From: a phage
Assembly (NCBI GenBank): GCA_029944565.1
Contig: GCA_029944565.1_4115.1
Strand: one strand, 5' to 3'
Length of the DNA: 64,000 bases
Shown here: one piece after another, positions 28,240-63,830 of the stretch
How the letters are laid out: each line of letters starts with the position of its first letter
Position numbering within the stretch: position 1 is the stretch's first letter
Notes under the pieces: generated by a model
Database searches by the model: none
The model's input: only the letters and a program-made list of their open reading frames with translations
Told to the model about the DNA's origin: nothing
Made by a program: the position numbers and the translations under genes

Positions 28240-28268
28240 AATTTTTACCCTATGATTAACGTTAGTGT

Positions 28269-28297: not shown

Positions 28298-28298
28298 G

Positions 28299-31439: not shown

Positions 31440-31726
31440 CGATCAGTACACCTTAGTGGTTGGGTCATTTGATAAAAGTACAGCTTACCTTTGATTTCCA
31501 GTAGTAACTCCGCGATTAAGCGATTTACTTCTGTATCTTGATAGTTTGTTCCTAAGAATACACCCATCTTTAACTCACGCATCATAATCATTTTCTTACT
31601 GTGTTGAATTTCTGGGTTGTGATAGATTGTATTACGTTTGTGCGTAATTTTTGTCATACGCTCGGTATATTCATCTTTACTTAAATTGATCATTTGCATG
31701 TTCATCAACCTCACATTTATTTTCAA
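31436..31726 (-). CDS. small hypothetical protein, family B paralog
   Basis: motif FLGTNYQDT. Confidence 0.5.
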   Translation of the reverse strand: MKINVRLMNMQMINLSKDEYTERMTKITHKRNTIYHNPEIQHSKKMIMMRELKMGVFLGTNYQDTEVNRLIAELLLEIKGKLYFYQMTQPLRCTDR

Positions 31727-31728
31727 TA

Positions 31729-31995
31729 CTATTCTTTAGTTTGTAGATATAGTTTTCTTCCAATGTATCTCTTAAGTGCGATTATGTATTCATCTACATA
31801 ATACTCCTGATAGTTTGTTCCTATGAATGCACCCACCTTTAACTCAAGTTTCATAATCATCTTATTTCCGTGTTTAATGACTTCTCCGTGATGGATTTCA
31901 TTAAGTCCAGGTGCAATTTTCACCAGGCGTTCTTTATATTTTGCTTGAGATAATTTAATCATTTTCATGTTAATTACCCTTACATTTATTTTCAA
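31729..31995 (-). CDS. small hypothetical protein, family B paralog
   Basis: motif FIGTNYQEY. Confidence 0.5.
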   Translation of the reverse strand: MKINVRVINMKMIKLSQAKYKERLVKIAPGLNEIHHGEVIKHGNKMIMKLELKVGAFIGTNYQEYYVDEYIIALKRYIGRKLYLQTKE

Positions 31996-32200
31996 TACTA
32001 TTCATGAGTTCTATAAGATAGTTTTCTACCTTACCTTCCTGATAGTTAGTCCCTAGGAAGTTGCACAACACGGCTTCTATGATTTTGATTTTCCTGATAT
32101 CAGGCTTCAATCTTTTGTTATTGAATATTTGAATCCTTATATCTCTGGATGCATTTAAACGTTTTTGATATTCATGGTAAGTTAAATGAATCATTTTCAT
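31970..32200 (-). CDS. small hypothetical protein, family B paralog
   Basis: motif FLGTNYQEG. Confidence 0.5.
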   Translation of the reverse strand: MKMIHLTYHEYQKRLNASRDIRIQIFNNKRLKPDIRKIKIIEAVLCNFLGTNYQEGKVENYLIELMNSIENKCKGN

Positions 32201-32415
32201 TTACGTTTAACCTCTCGCTGGAGGGCATCAATTAACATCAGTACAGCATTCTCTTGATAGTTTGTTCCTAAGACTGAAAGCATCTTTATCTCATTTACTA
32301 AAATCAACTTCTTTGAGGGTTCAATAATGTGACTATCATAAACGGCCTTACGTGCTGGATAAGTTTTCGCCAGTATAACATAAAATTCGTCTTTACTTAA
32401 ATTAATCATTTGCAT
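32197..32415 (-). CDS. small hypothetical protein, family B paralog
   Basis: motif VLGTNYQEN. Confidence 0.5.
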   Translation of the reverse strand: MQMINLSKDEFYVILAKTYPARKAVYDSHIIEPSKKLILVNEIKMLSVLGTNYQENAVLMLIDALQREVKRK

Positions 32416-32624
32416 TTACTTTTAACCTCTTTCTGTAGAGCGTCAATCCATAGATCTACATACATTTGTTGATAGTTTGTGCCTAAGAGTGCACCTACAT
32501 AGAGTTCAGTTACTAGTGCGTGCTTAAGGTTAGCTTGGATGCTCTTATCGCTTGATATCATTCTCCTTCTGCTTCCACATGTTTTCAGGAGTCTGATGTA
32601 TTCAAAGCCTTGTAAATTTCTCAT
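32406..32624 (-). CDS. small hypothetical protein, family B paralog
   Basis: motif LLGTNYQQM. Confidence 0.5.
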   Translation of the reverse strand: MRNLQGFEYIRLLKTCGSRRRMISSDKSIQANLKHALVTELYVGALLGTNYQQMYVDLWIDALQKEVKSKCK

Positions 32625-32836
32625 ATTTTGGATACTACCTTGTTACGTAAGGAACTTAATAATACGTCAGTGTAGATGTTTTGATAGTTTGTCCCTACGA
32701 ATACACCCAACTTCATTTCAGCTATTATAACACATTTGTCCTCTTGTGCAATAGATTTGTTTAACACAATACTATACACTTTTGATTTGATAGTTTGTAA
32801 CCTCCAATGATACTGATACTCATTAAGGATTATCAT
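32621..32836 (-). CDS. small hypothetical protein, family B paralog
   Basis: motif FVGTNYQNI. Confidence 0.5.
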   Translation of the reverse strand: MIILNEYQYHWRLQTIKSKVYSIVLNKSIAQEDKCVIIAEMKLGVFVGTNYQNIYTDVLLSSLRNKVVSKI

Positions 32837-33071
32837 TCTCTTTCCTCCAGATTTCGGTTCTCATGTGTTGGCAGTGTGCATCAATATATTGCTCTATCGA
32901 TCTGGCGATTGCTGTTTTATCAGTGCCTGTCATCAGTACAAGCATCTCGGCCTCACAGTGAAGTAAACGCATGATATCATAGGGTAATATTTCAGATACC
33001 GTGTCATAGTGTTTCTGTGCCAGTGTCTGCAATAGTTTACAATACATTTTGTGATTTAGTCTTTGTCGCAT
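32823..33071 (-). CDS. small hypothetical protein, family B-like
   Basis: variant MTGTDKTAI. Confidence 0.45.
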   Translation of the reverse strand: MRQRLNHKMYCKLLQTLAQKHYDTVSEILPYDIMRLLHCEAEMLVLMTGTDKTAIARSIEQYIDAHCQHMRTEIWRKENDNP

Positions 33072-33328
33072 TGTTTATTCCATTCTTTTTTGGCTCTCTG
33101 GGTTTTATATTGGATTTGGTTTCTTAATGATGCCAAGTATCGTTGAATGAACAGATCTTGATAGTTTGTTCCAATGAATTTCATAAGATAAACATCACCG
33201 TTGATAACATCCACTTCAGGTGCACCATGTAATACATTGTTTTTTCTAAGGGTGTTAATAAGAGAGAAGAGGGCAGTTTGATACTCAACTCCTGATAAAG
33301 TCTTCATGTTTTGCGAGCCAATATTCAT
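33056..33328 (-). CDS. small hypothetical protein, family B paralog
   Basis: motif FIGTNYQDL. Confidence 0.5.
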   Translation of the reverse strand: MNIGSQNMKTLSGVEYQTALFSLINTLRKNNVLHGAPEVDVINGDVYLMKFIGTNYQDLFIQRYLASLRNQIQYKTQRAKKEWNKQCDKD

Positions 33329-33548
33329 CTAGTTTATCCTGTATAACATTCATTAATTGATCGACAAATTCTTTGCAAAACTTATCTTGATATTGAGTCC
33401 CCATAAAGTACAGCAACCATAGCTCATTAACTTTAGCTCGCATTTGGTTCCATGTAAGGGTGGGGTCATCGTAGATTACTCTTGCTTCTGGGGTGAGCTT
33501 TCGAATTCTAAGTGAATATTCATCTTGTGTTAAGTATTTCATTTGCAT
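33285..33548 (-). CDS. small hypothetical protein, family B paralog
   Basis: motif FMGTQYQDK. Confidence 0.5.
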   Translation of the reverse strand: MQMKYLTQDEYSLRIRKLTPEARVIYDDPTLTWNQMRAKVNELWLLYFMGTQYQDKFCKEFVDQLMNVIQDKLDEYWLAKHEDFIRS

Positions 33549-33697
33549 TTGTCCATAATGTAATTCTTGAGTGCAACTATGTGTTCATGGATATAAAAAT
33601 TCTGATGAGAAGTTCCAAGAAAGTACAGCATCCATCCCTCACTCTGCTCGACTTCTAGTTTAGTATCGAGTTGGTCAGATATGTTAATGAAAACCAT
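33539..33697 (-). CDS. short family B member (52 aa), possibly truncated
   Basis: motif FLGTSHQNF; below ORF-track cutoff; start shares duplicated 45-bp block with neighbour. Confidence 0.4.
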   Translation of the reverse strand: MVFINISDQLDTKLEVEQSEGWMLYFLGTSHQNFYIHEHIVALKNYIMDKCK

Positions 33698-33954
33698 TAG
33701 TTCTTTTCCTTTCTTTCTATTTGTTTCATAAGAACATTGATATACTCACCCGCAAACCTATTCTGATACTGCGTCCCCATGAATTCCAACATCCATACTT
33801 CAGCAACCTTTTCTTCAATTTCAGTCCATTGTAAGTACATCATAGTGAAGTAAATGGTGTTCTCTTTTTTTCTGGCACTCTTAGCACGGGCCTCGTATTC
33901 AAAGTTATTAATGATGTTCATTACATTTGTCCATAATGTAATTCTTGAGTGCAA
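33697..33954 (-). CDS. small hypothetical protein, family B paralog
   Basis: motif FMGTQYQNR. Confidence 0.5.
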   Translation of the reverse strand: MHSRITLWTNVMNIINNFEYEARAKSARKKENTIYFTMMYLQWTEIEEKVAEVWMLEFMGTQYQNRFAGEYINVLMKQIERKEKN

Positions 33955-34135
33955 CTATGTGTGCAATAACATACTCTTCCTGGAAGTTCGTCCCCAGTAC
34001 AGCCATCATGCGTTTATCGGTGGTGTTTATCCTGTGTTCCCTTACACATAAACCTTCTTTGTGAGGAAGTGTAAAATATTTGTTTATTGCAGCTATGATA
34101 ATTTTATTCTTCTCTATATTACTTAAATGTTTCAT
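33908..34135 (-). CDS. small hypothetical protein, family B paralog
   Basis: motif VLGTNFQEE. Confidence 0.5.
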   Translation of the reverse strand: MKHLSNIEKNKIIIAAINKYFTLPHKEGLCVREHRINTTDKRMMAVLGTNFQEEYVIAHIVALKNYIMDKCNEHH

Positions 34136-34344
34136 AGTTTACTCTTAATGTAGTTCTGAAGTTCAATTAAGTATTTCCCTACATAATACTCCTGAAAGTC
34201 TGTATCCAAAAATGCACCCATAAGTAAATCCTTCTCCATTGCCCTTGATAAGTTAAGGTCTGCATTTGAAAGGTATATAAGTAATATTTCAGTCTGGACA
34301 GAATTAAAACGTTTCTTATATTCTTCAGGTGTTAATATAATCAT
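34132..34344 (-). CDS. small hypothetical protein, family B paralog
   Basis: motif FLDTDFQEY. Confidence 0.5.
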   Translation of the reverse strand: MIILTPEEYKKRFNSVQTEILLIYLSNADLNLSRAMEKDLLMGAFLDTDFQEYYVGKYLIELQNYIKSKL

Positions 34345-34556
34345 AATTTGCTCCTGATGTATTTCTCAAGAGATGACAAATACTTTTCCTCATAATACTC
34401 CTGATAGTCTGTTCCCAAGAATGCACCCAAAAGTATTTCATTTTCCAATACCTCGGCTAAGTTTAAATCAGACGTCTCTTCGTATATTATGAGGATTTCA
34501 AGTTGTCTGGCAGCGATGCGTTCAGTATATTGATATGAGTTTTCTATAATAATCAT
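34341..34556 (-). CDS. small hypothetical protein, family B paralog
   Basis: motif FLGTDYQEY. Confidence 0.5.
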   Translation of the reverse strand: MIIIENSYQYTERIAARQLEILIIYEETSDLNLAEVLENEILLGAFLGTDYQEYYEEKYLSSLEKYIRSKL

Positions 34557-34762
34557 ATTTTACTCTTAATATCTTCTATTAAAAATCGAATCCATTCTTC
34601 AACATAATCTTCCTGATGGTTTGTGTTCAGTACAGCCAACATGCGGATCTCTGCTCTTGCAACTTCAATTTCAGTTTTAGGCAGGTCTTTGCTGATATCC
34701 ACCATTAAGTCCATGTATTTCAAGATAAGACCGTATGATTGGGTTCGTGTTATAGTTTTCAT
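34553..34762 (-). CDS. small hypothetical protein, family B paralog
   Basis: motif VLNTNHQED. Confidence 0.5.
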   Translation of the reverse strand: MKTITRTQSYGLILKYMDLMVDISKDLPKTEIEVARAEIRMLAVLNTNHQEDYVEEWIRFLIEDIKSKI

Positions 34763-34959
34763 TGTTTCCTCGTGGACAATATTTTATTTTTCAATGTATC
34801 CATATATTGCCACACCCATCTACCCTGATAGTTTGTTCCCAATGTAATCAAAAGGTATAACTCCATTCGTTCTACGTGTGTGTCTGTGTTGTAAATCTTT
34901 ACGTAGTTTTTACGTAACAGTGATTGATATTCTTCTTTATTTAAAATACGCATTTTCAT
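34759..34959 (-). CDS. small hypothetical protein, family B paralog
   Basis: motif TLGTNYQGR. Confidence 0.5.
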   Translation of the reverse strand: MKMRILNKEEYQSLLRKNYVKIYNTDTHVERMELYLLITLGTNYQGRWVWQYMDTLKNKILSTRKQ

Positions 34960-35153
34960 AGTTTACTCGTTATATCTTCAATTAAATACCAAATCCAATC
35001 GTTGACATACCTTTCCTGAAAGTTAGTTCCAATGAATAGTGCCATAATTAATTCACGCTTATAGGCAATACCACGGTCATGGGACTTATACATTATCATA
35101 GCCATGTTATTGATAAGTCTTTCGTGGTGCTGTTCTTTAGTTAAAATACGCAT
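34956..35153 (-). CDS. small hypothetical protein, family B paralog (first gene of array)
   Basis: motif FIGTNFQER; start at MRILTKEQ with SD aagggag, track ORF extends 10 codons further. Confidence 0.5.
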   Translation of the reverse strand: MRILTKEQHHERLINNMAMIMYKSHDRGIAYKRELIMALFIGTNFQERYVNDWIWYLIEDITSKL

Positions 35154-35183
35154 AGGGACTCCCTTAAAATTAATATCAATCAT

Positions 35184-53410: not shown

Positions 53411-53773
53411 TTATTCGTAAATCTTGCCACTGTCAGCCCATACCAGGAAACGAGGCATATTATCCCATGCATCTTGCTTTAAATTTAAACCGTGTAATAC
53501 TTCTGTACTTTCCATTCCTGGTACTGGTTTACTATACACCGCAAATAGTTCACCCATATACTGATAAGCCATCGTTAAATCACTGGCGATCATCTTATGG
53601 ATCATCGCATCAAGCATCACGGTAGCGGCGTATTGTTCACGCTTAAGCGGTAACATTGCAATAAGTTCCCGATAAGCTGAAATGTGAATTTTTACCGTTT
53701 CAGCCGGAAGACCTTTCATCTCTTCACGGAAGTTAACCAGGTTAGCAATAATTTTATTGATTTGAGTCGCCAT
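53411..53773 (-). CDS. hypothetical protein
   Basis: start MATQINKII; track ORF extended through leader. Confidence 0.6.
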   Translation of the reverse strand: MATQINKIIANLVNFREEMKGLPAETVKIHISAYRELIAMLPLKREQYAATVMLDAMIHKMIASDLTMAYQYMGELFAVYSKPVPGMESTEVLHGLNLKQDAWDNMPRFLVWADSGKIYE

Positions 53774-53797
53774 CGTTTTCATCTCTCTTACAGTGTA

Positions 53798-53856
53798 GCG
53801 GGAAGTGTTCCCGCTCTCGATGTAAAACATTATACGCTTTTAAACATAGTTTGCAA
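53798..53856 (-). promoter_or_regulatory. early promoter (TTGCAA-16-TATAAT) plus leader hairpin
   Basis: hairpin agcggga-agtgt-tcccgct. Confidence 0.65.
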
Positions 53857-53886
53857 GTACTTTCTACATGTACTTTTAAAATAGTT

Positions 53887-53975
53887 TTCTTTCTATATAG
53901 GAGTACTATTATTCAGTACTGCAACCATCCAGGGGAACTATCTTTCTATATAGGAGTACTATGATTCAGTACTGA
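53887..53975. repeat. two ~33-bp direct repeats (tctttctatataggagtactatNattcagtactg)
   Basis: copies at ~53889-53920 and ~53942-53975. Confidence 0.6.
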
Positions 53976-54136
53976 ATCAATCCACCAAATCATCCCGATA
54001 CCCCGTAAAACGGCCTCAGACGCATTCTAACGCATTAATACACCTAAGCTATACATTTGCACCATTCCAATCATTCCAGGGCTTTACGGGCCGTTTAAAC
54101 GCGTTAAATTATTTTCAATTATTTTGTTTTTAGCTA

Positions 54137-54164
54137 TTGACTCAGTACTGAAAAAGCGTATAAT
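54137..54164 (+). promoter_or_regulatory. plus-strand promoter (TTGACT-16-TATAAT)
   Basis: hexamers on plus strand; followed by conserved-core transcript. Confidence 0.55.
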
Positions 54165-54351
54165 TACTATATAGACGCGAGAAAGCGGATACCCCAGGGG
54201 GTGGGAAGATCCGTCCAAAATTCAAGATATAAAAAAAGGATAGACTCCCGCACCCTAGCAGGTTAACGCACTTTCTCAGTACTGAATTATAGTACCATAG
54301 TCCGGCCCAGGATGGCAAGCAAATTAATTAAAACTTTTTTCATCCAGGGTA

Positions 54352-54380
54352 TTGCTTTATTTTTCCAGTACTGCTATAAT
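54352..54380 (+). promoter_or_regulatory. plus-strand promoter (TTGCTT-17-TATAAT)
   Basis: followed by GTC-gagaaa-GAC hairpin and CCCACCGGGTGCATAGTTGTATCTA core. Confidence 0.5.
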
Positions 54381-54477
54381 ATTTTTATCAAGTCGAGAAA
54401 GACTCTAGCCCACCGGGTGCATAGTTGTATCTAAAATTCAGTACTAGATTATTTTTTAAAATTATTCATCCAAGCGG

Positions 54478-54506
54478 TTGACATACCAGGCGAAAACGGG
54501 GATAAT
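54478..54506 (+). promoter_or_regulatory. plus-strand promoter (TTGACA-17-GATAAT)
   Basis: hexamers on plus strand, no ORF downstream. Confidence 0.5.
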
Positions 54507-54599
54507 GATTCCAGATTCAGAAAAATCTAACTCCAGATACTGCGGGGAAACCATCCCCACGCGGTAGGGGAACTATTGGAAAAAATAAAATAAAAATTT

Positions 54600-54770
54600 T
54601 GATTTAGCCGTCTATACATCCAGACGTGTAACCATCTAGCCGTTTAGCCGTCCAAACGTCTAGCAGTACAGCCATCTAGAAATCTAGCCATCCAGCCGCC
54701 TAGAGGGATAGCCATCTTTACTTCCAGCCATCTGGAGGTCTAGACATCTCTACGTCTAAATTTAACCTAG
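54600..54770. repeat. iteron-like cluster of short GC-rich repeats (CCATCTAG / CGTCTA / TCTAGC)
   Basis: at least 10 degenerate units with CTAG cores in 170 bp, GC-rich against AT-rich background. Confidence 0.6.
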
Positions 54771-54914
54771 GGTTACTACACCCAAAATCCGTCAGTACTA
54801 TACCATAGATCTATCTTTTGAAAGGGAGTATTCAGTACTGCCATCATAGCCCTCACTATGTTACCCTAGGAGGATGAAGACTATCATGTAGTACTGAATA
54901 CTGTTAGGGGGAAT

Positions 54915-54934
54915 CCACCAGCACAAGCTGGTGG
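54915..54934. other. back-to-back Chi octamers CCACCAGC-acaa-GCTGGTGG
   Basis: perfect 8-bp inverted pair, Chi in both orientations. Confidence 0.55.
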
Positions 54935-55570
54935 CATAATGCTTTAGATTAAAATCAGTACTGACACCATTCTGTTAATATCAGTACTGTTATTACGATT
55001 TTCATATGAGGTTCAAAAAGATGTACCACCACAGGAGGAACTATCTTTTCTGTACTGTCTCACGACAGGAGGTAGAGTAAATGAATTGTTCGCAGCAACT
55101 CATCACCCTATGTAGAACATTATACAGTACTGAATCATAATGTCAATAACTTTCTTTCACCATTCAGTACTGATATTCTTGAGAACTACCCGACTACAAA
55201 CATCATTATATCCCACAAATCATAAACGTCCCAACGTAAATTTCAACTTTCGAAGATCCAACTTTTATTTCATAGGTACTCCAAAATTTTTAGGATCGAG
55301 ATTTAGAATGGAGTACTAACCAACTTTTTGCTGGAGCCTCAAGGGGTAATGGAATTTTACCCCGAAGGGTAAAAGGGTAATTGTAATTAAGGTGAAAGTA
55401 ATAATTCAGTACTAATCATTGCGTGATTACTTTTGATTACATTTGATGTAATTTGCAAAATGGAAAAGGAGCTTGGAAACTACAAAGTACGGCAGACTTC
55501 CTCTGCCTACTTAGTGGCATATCAGTACTGCTACGTTCTTGATTAAACGTGAACATTCCTGTACTCTAGT

Positions 55571-55610
55571 ACTCACTACTGTTCACTACTGTTCACTACT
55601 GATCACTACA
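55571..55610. repeat. four tandem 10-bp repeats (CTCACTACT/GTTCACTACT/GTTCACTACT/GATCACTACA)
   Basis: helical-pitch spacing, followed by ATGATTAC-type repeats at 55619-55670. Confidence 0.65.
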
Positions 55611-55721
55611 GTGATTATAAATGATTACTTAAATGTTTATATATGATTACTTATGACTACCTATGATTACGGGGTTTAGCCTGGGGAGAATCCTAGTGAT
55701 CGCATTTGTCCAGGCTGAATT

Positions 55722-55756
55722 TTAACATATGCAACATATGTTAAAGCCTGTATAAT
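55722..55756 (+). promoter_or_regulatory. perfect palindrome TTAACATATG-caa-CATATGTTAA next to -10 TATAAT
   Basis: 10-bp inverted arms at 55722-55744; TATAAT at 55751-55756 preceded by TG. Confidence 0.45.
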
Positions 55757-55786
55757 GCTTCCACTACGGAGCTTCCCCTAGCTATA

Positions 55787-55978
55787 TTACTTCCTATATA
55801 TAAGCATTAAGATATAGTAGTACTGATTATACTGTACATTCTCTTTAATATTATAAGGGTCTATAGCAATCTCGGTACATCTGTTAAATGCATATCTATT
55901 AAATGCCAGTGGAATTATAGATCTAATCCATACTTGTTCATTTTCTTTTAGTTTACTTATATAGAAGTTTTTATACAT
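55787..55978 (-). CDS. small hypothetical protein, family C paralog
   Basis: ends LMLIYRK; tandem array. Confidence 0.45.
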   Translation of the reverse strand: MYKNFYISKLKENEQVWIRSIIPLAFNRYAFNRCTEIAIDPYNIKENVQYNQYYYILMLIYRK

Positions 55979-55993
55979 AGTATTCTCTATTAA

Positions 55994-56176
55994 TTAATAT
56001 GGTAGTACTAGTGTTAGTACTGAGCACAATTGTTCTTTGTAGTTCTTAGGGTATATAGAATCTTTTATGCACTCATTGAAGTGCCATAGGTATAATCTTG
56101 GGTCGCATTCTTTATATATTCTTACGGGGACGAATGTTAGTTTTCGTATATAGAATTCTTTATGTTCTTTATTCAT
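55994..56176 (-). CDS. small hypothetical protein, family C paralog
   Basis: MNKEHKEFY start. Confidence 0.45.
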   Translation of the reverse strand: MNKEHKEFYIRKLTFVPVRIYKECDPRLYLWHFNECIKDSIYPKNYKEQLCSVLTLVLPY

Positions 56177-56177
56177 A

Positions 56178-56366
56178 TTAGTACCTGAATATAAGTAGGA
56201 TTATGTTATAGTACTGGTTAGTACTGCAATGATTCTCTATACATCGATTAACAGTTATGGAATAGCTATATCTGGCGTAAGCATTATCCAGCGGGATTTT
56301 ACATTGAGCACTTAGAGAAAGTACAGTAGGTAGTGTATTCAAATAGAAGTCTTTGTAATTATTCAT
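56178..56366 (-). CDS. small hypothetical protein, family C paralog
   Basis: ends ILLIFRY. Confidence 0.45.
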   Translation of the reverse strand: MNNYKDFYLNTLPTVLSLSAQCKIPLDNAYARYSYSITVNRCIENHCSTNQYYNIILLIFRY

Positions 56367-56568
56367 ACAGGAATAGTATACCTATGATACCTGAGTACAG
56401 GTTAGTACTGTTACCATCTTCGTTTGCGTTTAAAGTCATTTGAATACAATTATTGTAGCATACTCTGCCGAAAAATGTATTAGTACTTAAAGGTGGAGTA
56501 GTCCTTAGAAACATTTGTTCTGAGGGGCTTATGTATTTGGAGTAGAATTCTTTATGTTCTTTATTCAT
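56359..56568 (-). CDS. small hypothetical protein, family C paralog
   Basis: MNKEHKEFY start. Confidence 0.45.
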   Translation of the reverse strand: MNKEHKEFYSKYISPSEQMFLRTTPPLSTNTFFGRVCYNNCIQMTLNANEDGNSTNLYSGIIGILFLYE

Positions 56569-56573
56569 ATTAG

Positions 56574-56759
56574 TTAGTGTCTGTATATAAGTAATAGTAA
56601 GAATACGTACTGCACATCTTCATCTTTAGTATTGAGTACTGTACGTATTGCGTCATTAAACAAGAATATAGTACTTGGGTCATGAGAATTTAAAGGGGTT
56701 CTGGGTACGGCATGTTTGTAGTTCCCTTTAACAAATTGTGTGTAGTATTCTCTATGCAT
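56574..56759 (-). CDS. small hypothetical protein, family C paralog
   Basis: MHREYY start, ends LLLIYRH. Confidence 0.45.
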   Translation of the reverse strand: MHREYYTQFVKGNYKHAVPRTPLNSHDPSTIFLFNDAIRTVLNTKDEDVQYVFLLLLIYRH

Positions 56760-56760
56760 A

Positions 56761-56946
56761 TTAGTACCTATATATTAGGGCGAGAATGTAGTACAATTCA
56801 TATGGAATGTAATTTGGGGTGATCGCACACTGTGTATGGTAAATGAATTGTTCGGTATTTTTCTTATCCTTGATATCTATTGGGATTTGTGGTATAAGCA
56901 TTTGGGAGTTTAGATCGAGATGGCTTAAGTAGAATTCTTTATGCAT
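56761..56946 (-). CDS. small hypothetical protein, family C paralog
   Basis: MHKEFY start, ends LALIYRY. Confidence 0.45.
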   Translation of the reverse strand: MHKEFYLSHLDLNSQMLIPQIPIDIKDKKNTEQFIYHTQCAITPNYIPYELYYILALIYRY

Positions 56947-56955
56947 ATTGTTCTC

Positions 56956-57144
56956 TTAGAATACGAAAGCTAGGTACAGGGTATGATACAGTACTTGATT
57001 ATAGTTGTAATAATTTATCACGCATTTAGTGCACGTAATGAAGTAGTCTTTTTTGTAGTTTATTTCTATACCGCTAGGTTCATCTTCTAACAGATTACCT
57101 TGAAGGTGCGGAGGTAAATCTTTTATGTAGTATTCTTTATGCAT
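56956..57144 (-). CDS. small hypothetical protein, family C paralog
   Basis: start at internal MHKEYYIKDL of track ORF. Confidence 0.45.
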   Translation of the reverse strand: MHKEYYIKDLPPHLQGNLLEDEPSGIEINYKKDYFITCTKCVINYYNYNQVLYHTLYLAFVF

Positions 57145-57145
57145 G

Positions 57146-57328
57146 TTAGTACCTGAATATAAGTAGGATAGTGTTATATAGCTGGTCATAACTACTACTA
57201 TTTTCTATACTTCGTTCTATGCAGTTATTGAATCCCAGTACTGCCAAATCGTTATCCATAGGGACTTTATATCTGGCGTAGTGTTCAAAAATGCTGGGGA
57301 GAAATTGTGTGTAGTATTCTTTGTGCAT
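57146..57328 (-). CDS. small hypothetical protein, family C paralog
   Basis: MHKEYY start, ends ILLIFRY. Confidence 0.45.
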   Translation of the reverse strand: MHKEYYTQFLPSIFEHYARYKVPMDNDLAVLGFNNCIERSIENSSSYDQLYNTILLIFRY

Positions 57329-57329
57329 A

Positions 57330-57521
57330 TTAGTACCTATATATTAGTAAAAGGATGTGATACAGTACTCGATTATAGTCGTCAATATATATCGAGGATT
57401 TAGTGCACTGAATGAAGTAGTCTTTTTCGTAGTTTTTTTCTATACCCAATGCAACGTTTGGTACAAGGTGTTGGAGATACATTGGGAGTTTCTCTATGTA
57501 GTATTCTTTGTGGTTATTCAT
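57330..57521 (-). CDS. small hypothetical protein, family C paralog
   Basis: MNNHKEYY start, ends LLLIYRY. Confidence 0.45.
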   Translation of the reverse strand: MNNHKEYYIEKLPMYLQHLVPNVALGIEKNYEKDYFIQCTKSSIYIDDYNRVLYHILLLIYRY

Positions 57522-57529
57522 ATTATGTG

Positions 57530-57709
57530 TTATTTCGTGAAAACAAGGGTTAGTACTGCATAGTACAAGTCATACGTATCTTTAGGGTTAATAGCACCTT
57601 TAATACATTCTTTTATTAATTCATTATAGATAATTTTAGTACTGAAGGTATTGGATGTTACTATATCGGAATTAAGGTACGAGAGGTAGAATTCTTTATG
57701 TTTGTGCAT
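57530..57709 (-). CDS. small hypothetical protein, family C paralog (59 aa)
   Basis: MHKHKEFY start; below ORF-track cutoff. Confidence 0.4.
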   Translation of the reverse strand: MHKHKEFYLSYLNSDIVTSNTFSTKIIYNELIKECIKGAINPKDTYDLYYAVLTLVFTK

Positions 57710-57710
57710 A

Positions 57711-57893
57711 TTAGTACCTGAATGTTAGCATTACTACGTAGTACAGCATATATGGATTATCATCGTATATGAGCGTGTACTTAGTACATTGTTGGAACAT
57801 TATTTTTGCGTGATCTTTTATTCCTATTGGTTCTTTTGGTATATGGTGCTGGAGATGCATTGGGAGATGTTCCCTGTAGTATTCTTTATACAT
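57711..57893 (-). CDS. small hypothetical protein, family C paralog
   Basis: start at internal MYKEYYREHL, ends VMLTFRY. Confidence 0.45.
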   Translation of the reverse strand: MYKEYYREHLPMHLQHHIPKEPIGIKDHAKIMFQQCTKYTLIYDDNPYMLYYVVMLTFRY

Positions 57894-58557
57894 AGTTTGT
57901 AATATACGTAATGAGGTGATGCATTTTCTTATTAGTACTGATAAGTTCCTGTACATGTTTTGTCAGATTGTACGCGTTTTTATAGAGTACTGGATTATCG
58001 ATTACAGTACTGTACATGAATAGTTCTTCTTCCTGTAGTTCTTTGTGTTCTAGTTCTTTGAGGAATTGTAGTACTGTATCAGTTTCTTCTGTACGTTGTG
58101 CTTGCCAGAAGTGCATATTCTCGTGTACTTTTTCTGCATCAGTAGAGTATATGCCACCCATTTGGAATTGTGCTGTATTGACATCGTGGGAGGTGTTACA
58201 ATTCCCGAAGAAGTATGTATTCCCGAAGTATAGCATTAAAGTGCACGGGGTATTATCCAACTGCATATTGATGATGAAGGATGCGTTCTTTAGTACCTTT
58301 GTGCTCGTATTAGTACTCAATACTTTTAAATCAGTATTATAGATATTCATATAATGAACAGCTATATTATTTTTCTTCATGTACAATTCAAGGTTCTTTG
58401 ATACGTTAACTCCATTTGTACTGGATTTTTCCTTTTTATTTCGTTTCTTTAGTACATTCGGGTGATACGTATATGCAGATGTAACTGATTCTGCCTGAAT
58501 ACTATTGAGGTACTTAAAGTGCTTAAGGTATTGTTTGCTGTGTGCATTAAGTTTCAT
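57886..58557 (-). CDS. hypothetical protein with family A module, embedded in family C array
   Basis: 223 aa; C-terminal LQEEELFMYSTVIDNPVLY. Confidence 0.6.
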   Translation of the reverse strand: MKLNAHSKQYLKHFKYLNSIQAESVTSAYTYHPNVLKKRNKKEKSSTNGVNVSKNLELYMKKNNIAVHYMNIYNTDLKVLSTNTSTKVLKNASFIINMQLDNTPCTLMLYFGNTYFFGNCNTSHDVNTAQFQMGGIYSTDAEKVHENMHFWQAQRTEETDTVLQFLKELEHKELQEEELFMYSTVIDNPVLYKNAYNLTKHVQELISTNKKMHHLITYITNYV

Positions 58558-58567
58558 TTGGTTTCCT

Positions 58568-58747
58568 TTATATAGATGCCAGGGCGAGGATTTCCCTGTA
58601 GGGATTATCTTGTGTTAGTACAGCATAAATGCAGTTATTGAGATTAATATTTTTAGTACTTTTTGTTCCTAGTTTGTAGTACTTCACGAAGGTGTCGTAC
58701 ATGAAACGGTCTTTTATGGTTATACGTTCTCTATAGAATTGTTGCAT
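58568..58747 (-). CDS. small hypothetical protein, family C-like (59 aa)
   Basis: MQQFYRERI start; below ORF-track cutoff. Confidence 0.35.
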   Translation of the reverse strand: MQQFYRERITIKDRFMYDTFVKYYKLGTKSTKNINLNNCIYAVLTQDNPYREILALASI

Positions 58748-58755
58748 AGTATTCC

Positions 58756-58938
58756 TTATATAGAGATTAGTTTCATTACTTCTCTGTATGTGTACTTTTC
58801 GTTTTGTGCATCTCTTGTGACGACATATAGGAAGGTGTGTTTATCTTTTTTGTTCCCGCAATTGTAGAAAATATTGAACTTATTGAAGTTGAATCTTTCG
58901 GCGTGTTGTAGTTTAGTTAAATAGAATTCTATGTTCAT
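58756..58938 (-). CDS. small hypothetical protein, family C-like
   Basis: 60-aa ORF ending MKLISI. Confidence 0.4.
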   Translation of the reverse strand: MNIEFYLTKLQHAERFNFNKFNIFYNCGNKKDKHTFLYVVTRDAQNEKYTYREVMKLISI

Positions 58939-58946
58939 TTTCTTCC

Positions 58947-59132
58947 TTACATTTCAATAAGTTTCAGTACTGCTCGGTACGTGTACTTAGTTGTCAGTGC
59001 TTCTTTAATAGAAATACAGAAGTAATGTTGTTTGTCTCTTATACTGCCGCGTTTGTAGTACCACACATGGGAGTTGTGACTGTACTTGTCTCTGTCGGAT
59101 AGTTGTTGGTAGTAGTAGCTTATATGATTCAT
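58947..59132 (-). CDS. small hypothetical protein, family C-like
   Basis: 61-aa ORF ending LKLIEM. Confidence 0.4.
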   Translation of the reverse strand: MNHISYYYQQLSDRDKYSHNSHVWYYKRGSIRDKQHYFCISIKEALTTKYTYRAVLKLIEM

Positions 59133-59341
59133 TATAATGTAATTAGCCTTACTATATTAAAGTACTCGGTCCCTGGTGTACCTTGTAGTATATTACGCAC
59201 GACATTTTTTTGGTGCTGGATGATTGCTGAAGGTGCGGTTCTTTTTAGTTTTTTTAAAGTACTGAATTCTTGTTTAAGTATGAACTGTACATCTTTAGGG
59301 AGAATATCTATGTAGTACTGATGAATGTTTGTAGTTTTCAT
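59132..59341 (-). CDS. small hypothetical protein, family C paralog
   Basis: QYYIDILP start region, ends VRLITL. Confidence 0.45.
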   Translation of the reverse strand: MKTTNIHQYYIDILPKDVQFILKQEFSTLKKLKRTAPSAIIQHQKNVVRNILQGTPGTEYFNIVRLITL

Positions 59342-59351
59342 ATAGCACCTT

Positions 59352-59546
59352 TTAGAACTTAAAGATGAGGTTCAGGATAGAGCGGTACTTAGTTTCAGGG
59401 AACTGATGTTCTATTGCATAACGTGTCGCCATCCTGAAATCGTAATTGTAATATAGATTATCCTTTCTCATAGGTGGTGCTAAAGAGAATGATAGCTGGT
59501 CTTGCTTGTGTAGTTTACTACCATAGAAATCTTTATGATTATTCAT
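59352..59546 (-). CDS. small hypothetical protein, family C paralog
   Basis: MNNHKDFY start, ends LNLIFKF. Confidence 0.45.
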   Translation of the reverse strand: MNNHKDFYGSKLHKQDQLSFSLAPPMRKDNLYYNYDFRMATRYAIEHQFPETKYRSILNLIFKF

Positions 59547-59748
59547 AGAAGTAGATTAGTCCTATTAAACCTGAGTACATAATATTTTTGTTATTGCATT
59601 CGATTGCTTCTAGAGTACTACGTATACAATTATTAAAGCAATCTCTACCGAAGTGAGTATTGGTACTTACAGGTGATACACTCCTTAGAAACAATTGTTC
59701 TTCGTTGCTAAGGTATTTGGTGTAGAATTCTTTATGTTCAGTATTCAT
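59539..59748 (-). CDS. small hypothetical protein, family C paralog
   Basis: MNTEHKEFY start. Confidence 0.45.
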   Translation of the reverse strand: MNTEHKEFYTKYLSNEEQLFLRSVSPVSTNTHFGRDCFNNCIRSTLEAIECNNKNIMYSGLIGLIYFYE

Positions 59749-59749
59749 A

Positions 59750-59953
59750 TTAGTACTCGATTAAAAGGGCAAGGATATAATAGTATTGCATACTTTCTGC
59801 CCCTTGTAAAGCATTTCTTATGATATTACTCCTGTACGAGTTCAGGAGTTTAGGACAACGTTTGTAGTGTATAAAAGTATTTTGTGTATACAGTAGGCTT
59901 TCTCGTAGACCTTTTGTTGGTAGTGCATCGATGTAGTACTGTTCAATGTTCAT
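59750..59953 (-). CDS. small hypothetical protein, family C paralog
   Basis: MNIEQYYIDALP start, ends LALLIEY. Confidence 0.45.
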   Translation of the reverse strand: MNIEQYYIDALPTKGLRESLLYTQNTFIHYKRCPKLLNSYRSNIIRNALQGAESMQYYYILALLIEY

Positions 59954-60177
59954 ATAGATAGCAGTACTAAGATTTTTGATAATTGTTTATTGCTATCCCC
60001 GCAGATGTTGCTGTGTAAAATACTCACAATGAGGGTATCAATTGCATTGTTCATCATAAGGGTGCATCCTGGACTATTATAATTTTTTAGCTCAATTAGC
60101 CACGAACTATCCGAGAGAAATTCCCCGTACTCTAGTTCATTTAGAGTATTGAGGTAGTACTTAAGAGTATTTGTCAT
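59950..60177 (-). CDS. small hypothetical protein (first gene of family C operon)
   Basis: 75-aa ORF with SD aaggag. Confidence 0.45.
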   Translation of the reverse strand: MTNTLKYYLNTLNELEYGEFLSDSSWLIELKNYNSPGCTLMMNNAIDTLIVSILHSNICGDSNKQLSKILVLLSI

Positions 60178-60202
60178 GTGTAGTTCTCCTTATATTCCTT
60201 CT

Positions 60203-60231
60203 ATAGTACACCAGTACTGAAAGGATGTCAA
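60203..60231 (-). promoter_or_regulatory. promoter of family C array (TTGACA-17-TACTAT)
   Basis: hexamers on minus strand upstream of 59950..60177. Confidence 0.55.
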
Positions 60232-60249
60232 GGGTTTTCTTTATGGGGT

Positions 60250-60279
60250 AAATATGATATAATGAATAAGGAGGGAAAT
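60250..60279 (+). promoter_or_regulatory. -10-only promoter-like element and RBS for first RCC1-like gene
   Basis: TGATATAAT then aaggaggg; box aaatatagtataatgaataaggagg repeats before each family D gene. Confidence 0.4.
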
Positions 60280-61428
60280 ATGTTACCTTTTGTTAGAATG
60301 ATTAAGTACGGGAATATTGCCCCTGGTGATGATGGACGTTTTAAAATATATTCCAGTGATTCCATGTATCTTCATGATACTTATACTGATAAGTTGTATG
60401 CATCTTCTGCGACGAATTGGGGTACTGGAACAGGTGTTTCGTCGAGTAAATTTATTCTTAGTGCGGAGAATGTTAAACGAGTTCTATTGGAAAATAACAG
60501 TAGTGATTGTCAATTGTATGAAGAGAAAGGTACTGGAAAAGTTTTTATCACTGGTAACACGAAGGCATTCACTGGTGTAACTGATAGAAAAACTTTGTGG
60601 ACGGAATGTACTACGTGGATAACATCAGGTGGTATTAATGTTTCTGATATAAAATACATGAGTAGTTTTAATGATATGAAGGTAAATTTGATAACAAACG
60701 ATGGTACATTGTATTGTTGTGGAGCTAACAATAACTCTAACCTATCATCATTTGGTGATGGTACAAACATTAATTCTTTTAACACATTCAAAAGGGTAGA
60801 TACTATAACTTCGGTTAAAAAGGCAGTTGGTAACATATACCTAAAAGAAGATAATACTTTATGGGGTTGTGGTTTTAACTATTACTATCAGTTAGGTACA
60901 GGTAATCAAACTTCTATTACTGGGGTGACGATGATTGCTTCGGATGTTATAGATTTTGATGTAAGTTATCAGAGTACATTTTTTATTAAATCAGATAATA
61001 ATTTGTACGCATGTGGTAAACAGTTCGGTGCACAATACGGGAACGAATTTGGCACAGGTGGTACTTCTTCATCTACAGATATACAATACAAAACTCCAAC
61101 ATTATTGAGTCCAGGAGTTTATAGTTTATATACTTGTGTTGGTAACATGGCGTCACATATAGTTAAAGGTGATGAAGTACTTTATGCATCTGGAAGCAAC
61201 TCGTCTGGTCAATTAGGTGTTGGTAATAATATTAATCAGTACTCTTATACCCCTTCATATACTTCGTTTAATACTTCGTGTAATTTGGTACGCACCCCAT
61301 CTGGTTCACTTATACTTACTGACACTTCGAAGTTATATTATTGTGGGGCTTCAATTGTAGTAATGGGAGGTATTGCTGGACAGAACGTTCTTAATTATAC
61401 CGAAGTCGATATGTCATTTTTGCAGTGA
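60280..61428 (+). CDS. RCC1-like repeat (beta-propeller) protein, family D copy 1
   Basis: repeated Gx(N)xxGQLGxG units (LWGCGFNYYYQLGTGN, LYASGSNSSGQLGVGN); start MLPFVRM after SD. Confidence 0.55.
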   Translation: MLPFVRMIKYGNIAPGDDGRFKIYSSDSMYLHDTYTDKLYASSATNWGTGTGVSSSKFILSAENVKRVLLENNSSDCQLYEEKGTGKVFITGNTKAFTGVTDRKTLWTECTTWITSGGINVSDIKYMSSFNDMKVNLITNDGTLYCCGANNNSNLSSFGDGTNINSFNTFKRVDTITSVKKAVGNIYLKEDNTLWGCGFNYYYQLGTGNQTSITGVTMIASDVIDFDVSYQSTFFIKSDNNLYACGKQFGAQYGNEFGTGGTSSSTDIQYKTPTLLSPGVYSLYTCVGNMASHIVKGDEVLYASGSNSSGQLGVGNNINQYSYTPSYTSFNTSCNLVRTPSGSLILTDTSKLYYCGASIVVMGGIAGQNVLNYTEVDMSFLQ

Positions 61429-61435
61429 TTTGATA

Positions 61436-61466
61436 TGCCAGTACTTGATGCTGGCTTTTCTTTTTT
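61436..61466 (+). terminator. rho-independent terminator
   Basis: hairpin gccag-N9-ctggc followed by T-run. Confidence 0.6.
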
Positions 61467-61501
61467 GTATTAAATATAGTATAATGAATAAGGAGGGATT
61501 T

Positions 61502-62611
61502 ATGTTACCTTTTGGAAGAATGGTTAAGTACGGAAATATTGTACCTGGTCCTAAAAATATAATTAAAGTTGGTGCTTCTACACAAGGTCAATTCTTATTG
61601 ACTGATTCACATGATTTATATTACATAGGTAGAAATCAAGGTGGTGAATCTGGAAATGGTAATACCAACACGGTATCTTCATGGATATTAGTAAGTGCAG
61701 ATGTTTCTAATTTTTTCGTGGGTGATCGTACACTTGTTATTATTAAAAATGATAATACGATATGGACATCAGGTCAAACGTACTGGTTCTCATCTTCTAC
61801 AACTACTTCTTACAGTACTGTATTAGTTGAAAGGACTAGTTGGTTTACCACGGCTATACCAGTAAGTGAGATTGCTAATATTGTATGTACAAATGGTTTA
61901 ATATTTGTACTTAGCACTAATTCAGTACTCTATGGTGCAGGAGATAATGGATATCGTGGTTCTTTGGGTATTGGTTCATCATCAATTTATACATTAACTC
62001 AATGTGCTACGAACGTTCGTAAAGTAATGACCAATGCGAATGATAGTATGTATCTTACATTAGATAATAAGCTATATAGTTCTGGATGGAATAGTAGTGG
62101 GCAGCATGGTACGGGGAACCAAACACAAATTAACACTTGGGGATTGCGTAGTTCTGGTGTAATCGATGCAGCCATTGGTGGTAATGCATTAAATTACTAT
62201 AATGGTACATCATATTTCGTATGTGGTCAAACTCCAAACTTTCTTAGTTCAGGTACGACTACATTCCGTGCAGTTCCTGTAAGTACTTTGCCTAATAGTT
62301 CTCCGTTGTTTATGACGAATTCACCTGCATTAAATACTGCTACACAAATGGTAATTACTAGTACATATCAAAAGGGTGTTGGGGCGAACCGTGGTTTGGG
62401 ATTAAACAATTCTCAAACTGGTGCTATATATAGTGCTACCAATTTACAATTACCCGTTGAAGTTAGTGAGATTAGGGATGTTCTTTTTAGTGATGGTTTG
62501 ACATCGATATTAACCAAAAATGGAGATGTGTATAGTACTGGATCGTATTACGCCATTCCAGGTGCAATCGAGGATGTTGCAGTCTTTACTAAAATTGATT
62601 TACCAAAATAA
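61502..62611 (+). CDS. RCC1-like repeat protein, family D copy 2
   Basis: motifs LYGAGDNGYRGSLGIG and LYSSGWNSSGQHGTGN; start MLPFGRM. Confidence 0.55.
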   Translation: MLPFGRMVKYGNIVPGPKNIIKVGASTQGQFLLTDSHDLYYIGRNQGGESGNGNTNTVSSWILVSADVSNFFVGDRTLVIIKNDNTIWTSGQTYWFSSSTTTSYSTVLVERTSWFTTAIPVSEIANIVCTNGLIFVLSTNSVLYGAGDNGYRGSLGIGSSSIYTLTQCATNVRKVMTNANDSMYLTLDNKLYSSGWNSSGQHGTGNQTQINTWGLRSSGVIDAAIGGNALNYYNGTSYFVCGQTPNFLSSGTTTFRAVPVSTLPNSSPLFMTNSPALNTATQMVITSTYQKGVGANRGLGLNNSQTGAIYSATNLQLPVEVSEIRDVLFSDGLTSILTKNGDVYSTGSYYAIPGAIEDVAVFTKIDLPK

Positions 62612-62615
62612 CATA

Positions 62616-62647
62616 ATGCCAGTGCTTGATACTGGCATTCTTATTTG
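62616..62647 (+). terminator. rho-independent terminator
   Basis: hairpin atgccagt-gcttgat-actggcat followed by T-rich tract. Confidence 0.6.
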
Positions 62648-62681
62648 TATTAAATATAGTATAATGAATAAGGAGGGAAAT

Positions 62682-63830
62682 ATGTTACCTTTTGGAAGAA
62701 TGATTAAGTACGGAAATATTGCACCTAACCCGCCTGATCCTAGTACACGTTTTAAAATATATTCCGGCGGTAGTGCTATGTATTTTCATGATACATACAC
62801 GAAAAATTTGTATGCATCAGCGGCAGTCAGTCAGGGTACTGGAACTGGTGTAGCGTCGAGTAAATTTATTCTTAGTGCGACTAATGTTAAAAGAGTCCTT
62901 TTGGAAAATAACAGTAGTGGTTGTCAATTATATGAAGAAGACGGTACTGGAAAAGTGTTTATAACTGGAAGTCCGAGTGCGTTTTCTGGTTCAGGTGCAT
63001 ATTATAACACGTGGACAGATTGTACTTCATGGATAACATCCAGTGGTATTAATGTTTCTGATATAAAATACATGAGTAGTTACAGTGATCTTAAAGTGAA
63101 TTTGATAACAACTGATGGTACTTTATATTGCTGCGGAACAAACAGCACATCAACCAGATCATCTTTTGGTAATGGCACAAATACAAATTCATTTAACGCC
63201 TTTGTTAAGATTGAAGCCATATCATCGGTAAAAAAAGCTGTTGGTAACATATACCTAAAAGAAGATAATACATTATGGGGTTGTGGTATTAACACTTACT
63301 ATCAGTTAGGGACAGGCAATCAAACTGCTAGTACTGGTGTTGTTAGAATACAGACTAATGTTATAGATGTCGATGTAAGTTATCAGAGTACATTTTTTAT
63401 TAAAGATGATAATAAATTGTACGCTTGTGGTACACAATATGGAGTATCATATGGTAATGAATTCGGCACAGGCACAACACTTAAGCAATACACAACACCA
63501 ACTTTATTGAATTCGGATGTACAGAATATATACTGTTGTGTTGGTAATATGGCTTCACATATTCTCAGATTTGGGACTACAATATTTGCATCTGGGGTTA
63601 ACACTGGTGGGCAATTGGGTGTTGGTAATCTTACAAATCAGTTCTATTATACCAAGTCTTATGAAAATTTTAATAGTTCTTACAGTTTAGTACTGAATAA
63701 CATCGGTAGTTTGATTCTCACAGATGAAGGGAAGTTATTTTATACTGGTTTTTCCAATCTAGTAATGGGTGGAAGTTCTGGGCAGTACACTACAAGATAT
63801 ACCGAAGTTGATATGTCATTTATACAATGA
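62682..63830 (+). CDS. RCC1-like repeat protein, family D copy 3
   Basis: close paralog of copy 1 (LWGCGINTYYQLGTGN, IFASGVNTGGQLGVGN). Confidence 0.55.
   Translation: MLPFGRMIKYGNIAPNPPDPSTRFKIYSGGSAMYFHDTYTKNLYASAAVSQGTGTGVASSKFILSATNVKRVLLENNSSGCQLYEEDGTGKVFITGSPSAFSGSGAYYNTWTDCTSWITSSGINVSDIKYMSSYSDLKVNLITTDGTLYCCGTNSTSTRSSFGNGTNTNSFNAFVKIEAISSVKKAVGNIYLKEDNTLWGCGINTYYQLGTGNQTASTGVVRIQTNVIDVDVSYQSTFFIKDDNKLYACGTQYGVSYGNEFGTGTTLKQYTTPTLLNSDVQNIYCCVGNMASHILRFGTTIFASGVNTGGQLGVGNLTNQFYYTKSYENFNSSYSLVLNNIGSLILTDEGKLFYTGFSNLVMGGSSGQYTTRYTEVDMSFIQ

Follow-up and report, generated by a model that had tools for sequence, protein, structure and literature searches.

A tandem array of small paralogous genes with a predicted four-helix product beside the terminal-repeat border of Asteriusvirus jumbo phages

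The multigene families (MGF) 110, 360 and 505 of African swine fever virus (ASFV) and the terminal host-range families of poxviruses consist of diverged paralogues arranged in tandem beside terminal repeats; isolates gain and lose copies, and the families belong to one lineage. The terminal-redundancy module of phage SPO1, the pre-early genes of T5 and the Tre genes of Kayvirus are early host-takeover sets, composed mostly of unrelated genes that lie inside the repeat. In Bacillus phage G, a zinc ribbon has been expanded to approximately 35 copies (PMC7824862). Here we describe a tandem array of small genes, which we call array C, at positions 55787-60177 on the minus strand of a 64,000-nucleotide (nt) stretch of phage DNA (contig GCA_029944565.1_4115.1 of assembly GCA_029944565.1). 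This whole stretch, hereafter the window, we assign from its sequence to an Asteriusvirus jumbo coliphage of the 121Q/PBECO4/slurp01 group. The array is predicted to encode diverged members of a single protein family, for which we tentatively propose a role in binding host proteins.

On the minus strand, positions 55787-60177 hold 19 consecutive small open reading frames (ORFs) of 59-75 amino acids (aa) after correction of start sites, together with one ORF of 223 aa that we call gene X. A listing of the ORFs in this interval contained no longer frame that spans the array units, each of which has its own start and stop. Two of the listed frames, 57711-57956 and 56956-57189, are in-frame N-terminal extensions that overlap the preceding gene. 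Their true starts are most likely the internal ATGs at 57893 (MYKEYY) and 57144 (MHKEYY), because these produce N-termini of the family type and because JP4 and 121Q are annotated likewise. In the direction of transcription the genes are as follows.

59950-60177, minus strand: first gene of the operon, 75 aa, acidic (isoelectric point, pI, 4.7); ratio of non-synonymous to synonymous differences per site (pN/pS) 0.55; found in 12 of 13 phages
59750-59953, minus strand: remote member of the pair type, 67 aa; 4-nt overlap (ATGA) of its start with the upstream stop; BLASTP match to the gene at 59132 with E 5e-11
59539-59748, minus strand: core member, 69 aa; an old duplicate of the gene at 56359 (59% identity), covered by DNA repeat D2 (245 nt, 74% identity)
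59352-59546, minus strand: core member, 64 aa; 8-nt overlap with the upstream gene; core hidden Markov model (HMM) E 1.5e-25
59132-59341, minus strand: remote member of the pair type, 69 aa; missing in JP4, 121Q, CMSTMSU and TH47
58947-59132 (61 aa), 58756-58938 (60 aa) and 58568-58747 (59 aa), minus strand: remote members of the trio type; mutual BLASTP E 1e-6 to 2e-11
57886-58557, minus strand: embedded gene X, 223 aa, phrog_29152 (no annotated function)
57711-57893, 57530-57709, 57330-57521 and 57146-57328, minus strand: core members by the core HMM, first four of eleven consecutive
56956-57144, 56761-56946, 56574-56759 and 56359-56568, minus strand: core members by the core HMM, next four of the eleven
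56178-56366, 55994-56176 and 55787-55978, minus strand: core members by the core HMM, last three of the eleven

The order along the array can be summarised as F, P, C, C, (P), T..T, X, C...C, where F is the first gene, P a pair-type gene, C a core gene and T a trio-type gene. A unit of two genes, in which a 69-aa gene overlaps a gene of 62-64 aa by 8 nt, is found twice in the window (59352-59748 and 56178-56568). An original prediction, made from this DNA alone, had described about 19 tandem copies of one protein separated by 2-20 bp. The 19 small genes exist, but only 13 of them are typical copies, five being remote relatives and the first gene being unlinked to the others; the spacing is in fact -8 to +15 nt, and several neighbouring genes overlap.

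Short, AT-rich units of this kind, some of which are left unannotated in several related records, might be chance frames in repetitive DNA or parts of one longer gene. We calculated pN/pS for each gene by the Nei-Gojobori method, comparing the window with orthologues in up to seven phages. Eighteen small genes had ratios of 0.16-0.72 and the nineteenth had 1.08, and two spurious overlapping ORFs put through the same test gave 1.20 and 1.48, so that only the proposed frame shows purifying selection. For all 19 genes together, the pooled pN/pS was 0.49, with 417 differences at 3473 synonymous sites and 854 at 14386 non-synonymous sites. Starts, stops and gene order were maintained in all 12 comparison phages, the exceptions to intact ORFs being truncated copies in CMSTMSU and TH47. 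Tandem Repeats Finder detected no DNA repeat with a period of about 190 bp in the array; similarity between copies at the DNA level is mostly restricted to stretches of 60-66 nt that span the gene junctions, and only two longer repeats, D2 (245 nt) and D5 (102 nt), lie inside gene bodies. Purifying selection and the missing repeat led us to reject a non-coding repeat, and the conserved starts and stops, the presence of ribosome sites and a confidently predicted fold (both described below) also speak against a non-coding origin, which we consider effectively refuted by these comparisons and to which we attach almost no probability. In view of the pooled pN/pS, the starts and stops conserved in 12 other phages and the predicted fold, we call the array units as separate protein-coding genes. 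The same three observations uphold the view of the original prediction that these are distinct genes of one family and not frame artefacts of a single long gene.

All-against-all BLASTP grouped 13 core genes, namely the eleven at 55787-57893 and those at 59352-59546 and 59539-59748, with identities of 22-59%. Their alignment yields the consensus xxxHKEFY...F..C....I...YY..L.LIFRY. A profile built from these 13 copies recognised its own members at E 5e-18 to 1.5e-26, and the best other among 346 window ORFs scored E 0.07; the core family signal is far beyond chance. An alignment and HMM, originally envisaged for about 19 copies, separates these 13 from the remainder of the window. The termini that had been described as common to all copies (HKE[FY]Y...LxLI[FY]RY) are present in 13 of the 19 small genes, whereas about one third, the remote copies, do not have them.

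To place the remote copies, we built subgroup profiles from the window members and their orthologues in 11 further phages, each profile drawing on 12-13 phages, and compared these with hhalign. The core profile matched the trio with 95.7% probability (E 8.5e-9) and the pair with 91.8% probability (E 7.5e-7), in both cases over the full length. The first gene (59950-60177) gave hhalign probabilities of 1.3% to the core and 10.6% to the pair. We therefore assign 18 of the 19 small genes to one predicted superfamily, with 13 typical copies and five remote homologues (the trio and the pair) that are joined to them by profile-profile comparison alone. The nearest catalogued group is phrog_11711. 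All four core copies that we scanned matched it over their full length (E 1.3e-25, 2e-24, 1.7e-12 and 1.9e-6), and the core copies of the array can be regarded as its members. The PHROG entry, however, has neither a function nor a described genomic organisation, and the trio, the pair and the first gene fall outside it: no match to phrog_11711 was obtained with the first gene or with the two trio and pair copies scanned.

We ran AlphaFold2 on the gene at 57330-57521 with an 84-sequence family alignment. The resulting model has a mean predicted local distance difference test score (pLDDT) of 92.2 and a predicted template-modelling score (pTM) of 0.78, with helices at residues 3-9, 14-17, 30-45 and 49-62, and we confidently predict that family C adopts a four-helix domain. 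The fold has no evident counterpart in the resources searched. Foldseek against the PDB gave a best E of 6.9 or worse, and against BFVD its sole matches were two members of the family itself; a profile search of PDB sequences with the family gave E of at least 0.59; Pfam, searched with single members and with the 84-member alignment, gave just scattered matches at E > 0.03; and PADLOC together with Pfam gave no significant match to described defence or anti-defence families, no dedicated library of anti-defence proteins being part of that search. The most conserved positions are K5, E6, [FY]7, Y8, L12, F36, C39, I/L44 and the C-terminal helix. The loop at residues 18-35 and many helix positions are variable, both between paralogues and within orthogroups. 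Tyrosine accounts for 10.7% of the residues of the array proteins, compared with 6.2% in the other window proteins, and Gly, Val, Asp and Trp are depleted.

A look for a Cys/His metal-binding pattern had been recommended together with the original prediction. No ligand set emerged: conservation is limited to a single Cys (66%) and a single His (60%), and some members lack Cys altogether. We rejected a metal-binding or zinc-finger mini-protein because a conserved set of three or four Cys/His ligands is missing.

The composition of the DNA is also unusual here. On the coding strand of the array (56001-60177) C exceeds G, giving a plus-strand GC skew of +0.15 to +0.24 that is unlike that of the other minus-strand genes in the window. 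This skew accompanies an amino-acid composition with much Tyr, Pro, His and Asn and little Gly, Val or Asp.

Conservation along the protein is highest in the hydrophobic C-terminal segment YYILLLIFRY, so that one could imagine small membrane-active peptides that use this helix for superinfection exclusion or as holin-like proteins or toxins. The Kyte-Doolittle mean over 19 residues, however, never exceeds 1.18 in the array proteins, and therefore no membrane helix is predicted; the grand average of hydropathy (GRAVY) is negative in 18 of 19; there is no signal peptide; and AlphaFold packs the C-terminal helix into the globular bundle with pLDDT > 90. We rejected membrane peptides on the ground that the hydrophobic segment is too weak to span a membrane, and we judge this role very improbable.

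A small helical domain could instead bind nucleic acid, for example the palindrome AGTACT, with the proteins acting as transcription factors or in genome organisation. This palindrome is enriched 12-fold in the window, is present in early-promoter spacers and occurs 30 times within the array, and in phage G a small domain with a putative DNA-binding function is expanded in a comparable way (PMC7824862). On the other hand, the array proteins have pI values between 4.7 and 10.0 and show no basic surface that is conserved, Pfam scans and conservation analysis found no helix-turn-helix or zinc-ribbon signature in family C, and the fold searches above gave no match to DNA-binding domains. Nucleic-acid binding is, in our judgement, improbable.

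We examined the distribution of the array by several independent searches. Megablast of 55700-60300 returned 35 phage records, all from Escherichia or Salmonella phages of about 310-386 kb. The best match was vB_Eco_slurp01, with 97.3% identity over 100% of the query, followed by 121Q, PBECO4-type phages, JP4, G17 and BF17. GenBank taxonomy places these relatives in Asteriusvirus, and their array region is annotated merely as rows of 'hypothetical protein'. A tblastn search with the family returned 36 phage records, again Escherichia or Salmonella phages of about 310-386 kb and, where taxonomy was listed, Asteriusvirus. An exhaustive HMMER search of 1.84 billion representative proteins returned 33 clusters of proteins of about 60 aa, bar one spurious 531-aa repeat protein of eukaryote type. 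Word-index searches with the core, X and the trio recovered short hypothetical proteins (about 220 aa for X) whose named sources were this Escherichia/Salmonella phage group or E. coli assemblies, the long contigs among them measuring about 310-390 kb; a related-locus search with X returned 121Q only. Yersinia phage fHe-Yen9-04 (Eneladusvirus) and Cronobacter phage GAP32 (Mimasvirus) have RCC1-like neighbours, yet the array is not present beside those genes. In the searches made, the family, X and the trio were found only in what appears to be this single genus.

Within the genus, the array varies by whole genes. Defining orthogroups at 62% identity among members from 13 phages, we obtained 46 orthogroups on a backbone whose gene order is conserved. 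With cassettes numbered by type, eight phages carry P2, six carry T4 and five carry T5; C11, C8, C12 and C13 are each found in some phages and missing from others; and C4 has been placed at two positions. Turkey5 is divergent, and none of its copies reaches the 62% threshold to a copy of another phage. Complete loci carry 10-13 core copies, and phages carry two to six copies of the trio type. The array evolves by gain, loss and duplication of whole cassettes. It has the marks of a birth-and-death family, namely tandem paralogues, copy variation from isolate to isolate and a position beside a terminal repeat.

The same turnover could leave behind a largely dispensable by-product of recombination, in which unequal crossing-over at the junctions amplified cassettes that are now weakly selected, most of them with no specific function. 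For a phage gene the pooled pN/pS of 0.49 is high, losses and gains of cassettes are frequent, and conservation of the DNA is greatest at the junctions. The ratio is nevertheless still well below 1 over 1271 differences, the ORFs are intact in nearly all records (apart from the truncated copies in CMSTMSU and TH47), the paralogues are old (25-55% identity) yet keep a confidently predicted fold, and the backbone order is conserved genus-wide. We regard this explanation as rather improbable.

The position relative to the terminal repeat could be fixed by comparison with phage fEgEco12, whose termini were determined by PhageTerm and restriction mapping as direct terminal repeats of 20,993 bp (PMC13070987). 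The array of that phage extends to 353,438, and its right repeat starts at about 353,741. By blastn, fEgEco12 bases 1-2848 align to window positions 55511-52672, which gives the following border.

55505-55515, no strand assigned: point homologous to fEgEco12 base 1, the border of a direct terminal repeat of about 21 kb, located by blastn

The inner end of the fEgEco12 repeat aligns to about window position 35250, and therefore 35250-55511 is the equivalent of the terminal repeat. By this homology, array C ends 276 bp from one repeat border. At the opposite border, the tandem family that we call B starts about 70 bp away, and a further family, A, comes after family B. The GC content of 35250-55511 is 0.36-0.40, as against 0.29-0.36 outside.

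Three signals flank the array.

60203-60231, minus strand: sigma70-type promoter-like site, TTGACA, N6-CAGTACTG-N3, TACTAT (17-nt spacer), scoring 10/12 in a consensus scan
60186-60192, minus strand: strong Shine-Dalgarno sequence TAAGGAG, about 8 nt ahead of the first ATG and conserved in other phages
55677-55784, minus strand: conserved stem-loop of about 100 nt directly after the last stop codon (dG -48.5 kcal/mol, z -5.0)

The promoter-like site was recovered from 11 other phages, Turkey5 not being among them. Ten of these have both hexamers unaltered and the eleventh, Turkey3, has TACAAT, while the bases of the spacer vary. The spacer motif CAGTACTG also lies within consensus-promoter spacers of the adjacent terminal-repeat region. 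No terminator-like site was seen within the array. The original prediction had a single promoter at 60203..60231 driving the whole array: the site is indeed there and is conserved across the genus, and that it is the sole upstream promoter is plausible. The stem-loop is supported by three pairs, located in its apical hairpin, that stay paired through two-sided changes in 5 phages. It has no U tract, and an Rfam scan of 53500-60500 gave no match, the stem-loop included; possibly it forms a transcript 3' end or a stabilising structure.

Translation signals are built into the genes themselves. Six junctions read AGG TAC TAA T ATG (one TAAC variant), such that the last two codons of the upstream gene (Arg-Tyr) provide an AGGT motif 6 nt ahead of the next start; the Arg codon at these junctions is always AGG, which is otherwise uncommon. 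Junctions with gaps of 8-10 nt have sites of the AAGGA or AAGGT type, and the remaining junctions overlap (ATGA, or -8). We predict from this arrangement that the array genes are translationally coupled.

Gene X interrupts the array at the same position in 12 of the 13 phages compared; CMSTMSU has no intact ORF for it. Residues 163-208 of X match the profile of family A with E 3e-6, which gives statistical support to the family A module that the original prediction had noted in this protein. A PDB profile search with X found nothing, and the AlphaFold model was poor (pLDDT 45) and unusable.

The constant position of X inside the array, and the module that it has in common with the 36-member family A, suggest another role for the small proteins, as a set of adaptors or regulators whose conserved termini dock on one phage partner (X, a phage sigma factor or the replication machinery) and whose variable surfaces tune that partner or recruit clients. 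In favour of this role, the most conserved positions (K5, E6, Y8, L59 and the C-terminal helix) are common to the 13 core paralogues. The conserved residues are, however, mostly hydrophobic or aromatic, which fits a folding core; the unusable model of X lends no help; and cassette loss between close phages speaks against fixed stoichiometric roles. We consider a set of adaptors unlikely, though a genuine contender.

Our preferred reading, held tentatively and at somewhat less than an even chance, is that the array is a birth-and-death family of diversified small cytoplasmic proteins that act as binders or inhibitors in host takeover or counter-defence. Because the promoter is sigma70-like, it would be read by host RNA polymerase, probably early in infection. 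Each cassette that ends in AGG TAC TAA T ATG would bring with it the expression signal for the cassette downstream. The products would be eighteen diverged copies of one tyrosine-rich, four-helix cytoplasmic protein of about 60 residues, with a conserved hydrophobic core and K-E-[FY]-Y motif and a variable remainder, and each paralogue might cover a different host target or target variant, such as takeover factors or defence proteins. We favour binding because the proteins are small and soluble, are absent from a virion list (below), present a variable tyrosine-rich surface on a conserved core, and show relaxed constraint and rapid turnover, a combination reminiscent of small phage proteins directed at host factors or defences and of the end families of large eukaryotic viruses.

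Three considerations weigh against this proposal. A pN/pS of about 0.5 is no less compatible with relaxed constraint than with an arms race; the variation within orthogroups is spread across the protein and not concentrated in one loop; and, if the left end enters first in the direction of transcription, the operon would be among the last DNA to enter and might perhaps not be truly early.

The binder proposal can be extended, with low confidence, to a bolder picture. The array may be a repertoire built on a previously unseen tyrosine-rich four-helix mini-binder scaffold, in which each cassette neutralises a different host defence or factor variant. As each would also bring the ribosome site for the gene after it, unequal crossing-over between conserved junctions would yield new copies that are expressed at once. 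With arrays A and B included, the terminal-repeat borders would then be a dedicated innovation zone, a counterpart in bacterial viruses of the end families of ASFV and poxviruses. We think this picture in its entirety unlikely.

Several observations were made on the surrounding DNA. On the plus strand at 60262-63830, divergent from the array, lie three or more paralogous genes with RCC1 repeats (beta-propeller), a type that frequently carries the wrong annotation, 'DNA condensation protein' or 'E3 ubiquitin ligase HERC1'. Among virion proteins identified by mass spectrometry in phAPEC6, the RCC1-like neighbours gp549 and gp551 were detected, and none of the array proteins gp540c-548c is listed in the table of that report, by a method that easily misses small proteins (PMC7247149). 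The terminal-repeat equivalent, 35250-55511, has well-spaced small genes with strong sigma70-type promoters, and tandem families lie beside both of its borders. At the border near array C, a stretch of about 1.4 kb (54300-55700) has no convincing gene and contains nine CAGTACTG sites and densely spaced short direct repeats, with TCACTACTGT repeated 3.7 times at 55573-55609 and repeats of 10-12 bp at 55424-55670; GGCTAGATGG-like repeats are found near 54600-54730. A role of this stretch in packaging or replication is possible.

The palindrome AGTACT occurs 259 times in the window (examples are at 36565, 38538, 39032, 44086, 47558, 51559, 55125 and 60212), and CAGTACTG 54 times against 0.8 expected. 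In the three codon frames AGTACT was observed 61, 42 and 63 times, compared with 8, 6 and 6 after codon shuffling, and the excess extends to non-coding DNA; it is therefore selected at the DNA level. CAGTACTG also appears inside the spacers of consensus promoters, as TTGACA-N9-CAGTACTG-TATAAT. Among 6-bp palindromes, CCATGG, AGGCCT, AGCGCT, CGATCG, GGATCC, CTGCAG and GTCGAC have no occurrence in the window, and AAGCTT and TCTAGA are under-represented, a pattern that fits the avoidance of restriction sites. No such avoidance is seen for GAATTC, which recurs in the K-E-F motif of family C (AAA GAA TTC), with 7 sites in the array.

The other two tandem families have the same genome, strand and tandem layout as array C. 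Family A, at 676-29013, comprises 36 ORFs of about 100-220 aa that form a superfamily linked solely through iterated profiles and spread over several PHROGs (9317, 12674, 15629, 13866 and others), all without an assigned function; the module that it has in common with X comprises about 45 C-terminal residues. Family B consists of 28-31 tandem copies of a protein of about 72 aa, belonging to phrog_4148, which has no assigned function, at 27248-35183 plus 14271-14661. Family B has no detectable homology to array C, hhalign probabilities to the core, trio, pair and first-gene profiles being at most 0.7%.

The sequences of the array are already in GenBank and in the PHROGs as hypothetical proteins, and lineage-specific expansions in jumbo phages are already known. 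We found no description of the array itself in the literature, including term searches within the papers on CBB, phAPEC6, Sharanji, fEgEco12 and UE-S1 and that of Iyer et al. Much of a jumbo phage genome consists of genes to which no function can be given, and this window alone has more than 80 genes in three lineage-specific tandem families. Among these, family C is well suited to study, as it combines a confident and unmatched predicted fold, clear cassette turnover among isolates and a simple operon. If it is true that the copies inhibit host factors or defences, they would add a new scaffold to the catalogue of anti-defence proteins, and phages, like large eukaryotic viruses, would maintain expandable gene families at their genome ends. 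If the copies are instead dispensable, the array documents recombination that inflates jumbo genomes.

The described systems with which we began each resemble array C in part. The zinc-ribbon family of Bacillus phage G is likewise a lineage-specific expansion of a small domain in a jumbo phage, but family C has no Cys4 or Cys/His site and its predicted fold is all-helical. The SPO1, T5 and Kayvirus sets also consist of many small genes of unknown fold that follow strong promoters of the host type and are located at, or adjacent to, long direct terminal repeats; array C differs from them in being one paralogous family and in lying 276 bp outside the repeat border. With the multigene families of ASFV and poxviruses there is no relation in sequence or fold, the host of array C is bacterial, its proteins are much smaller and a counter-defence role is one that we infer. 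Array C nevertheless has in common with those viral families the arrangement of tandem paralogues next to terminal repeats, the turnover of copies and the restriction to a lineage.

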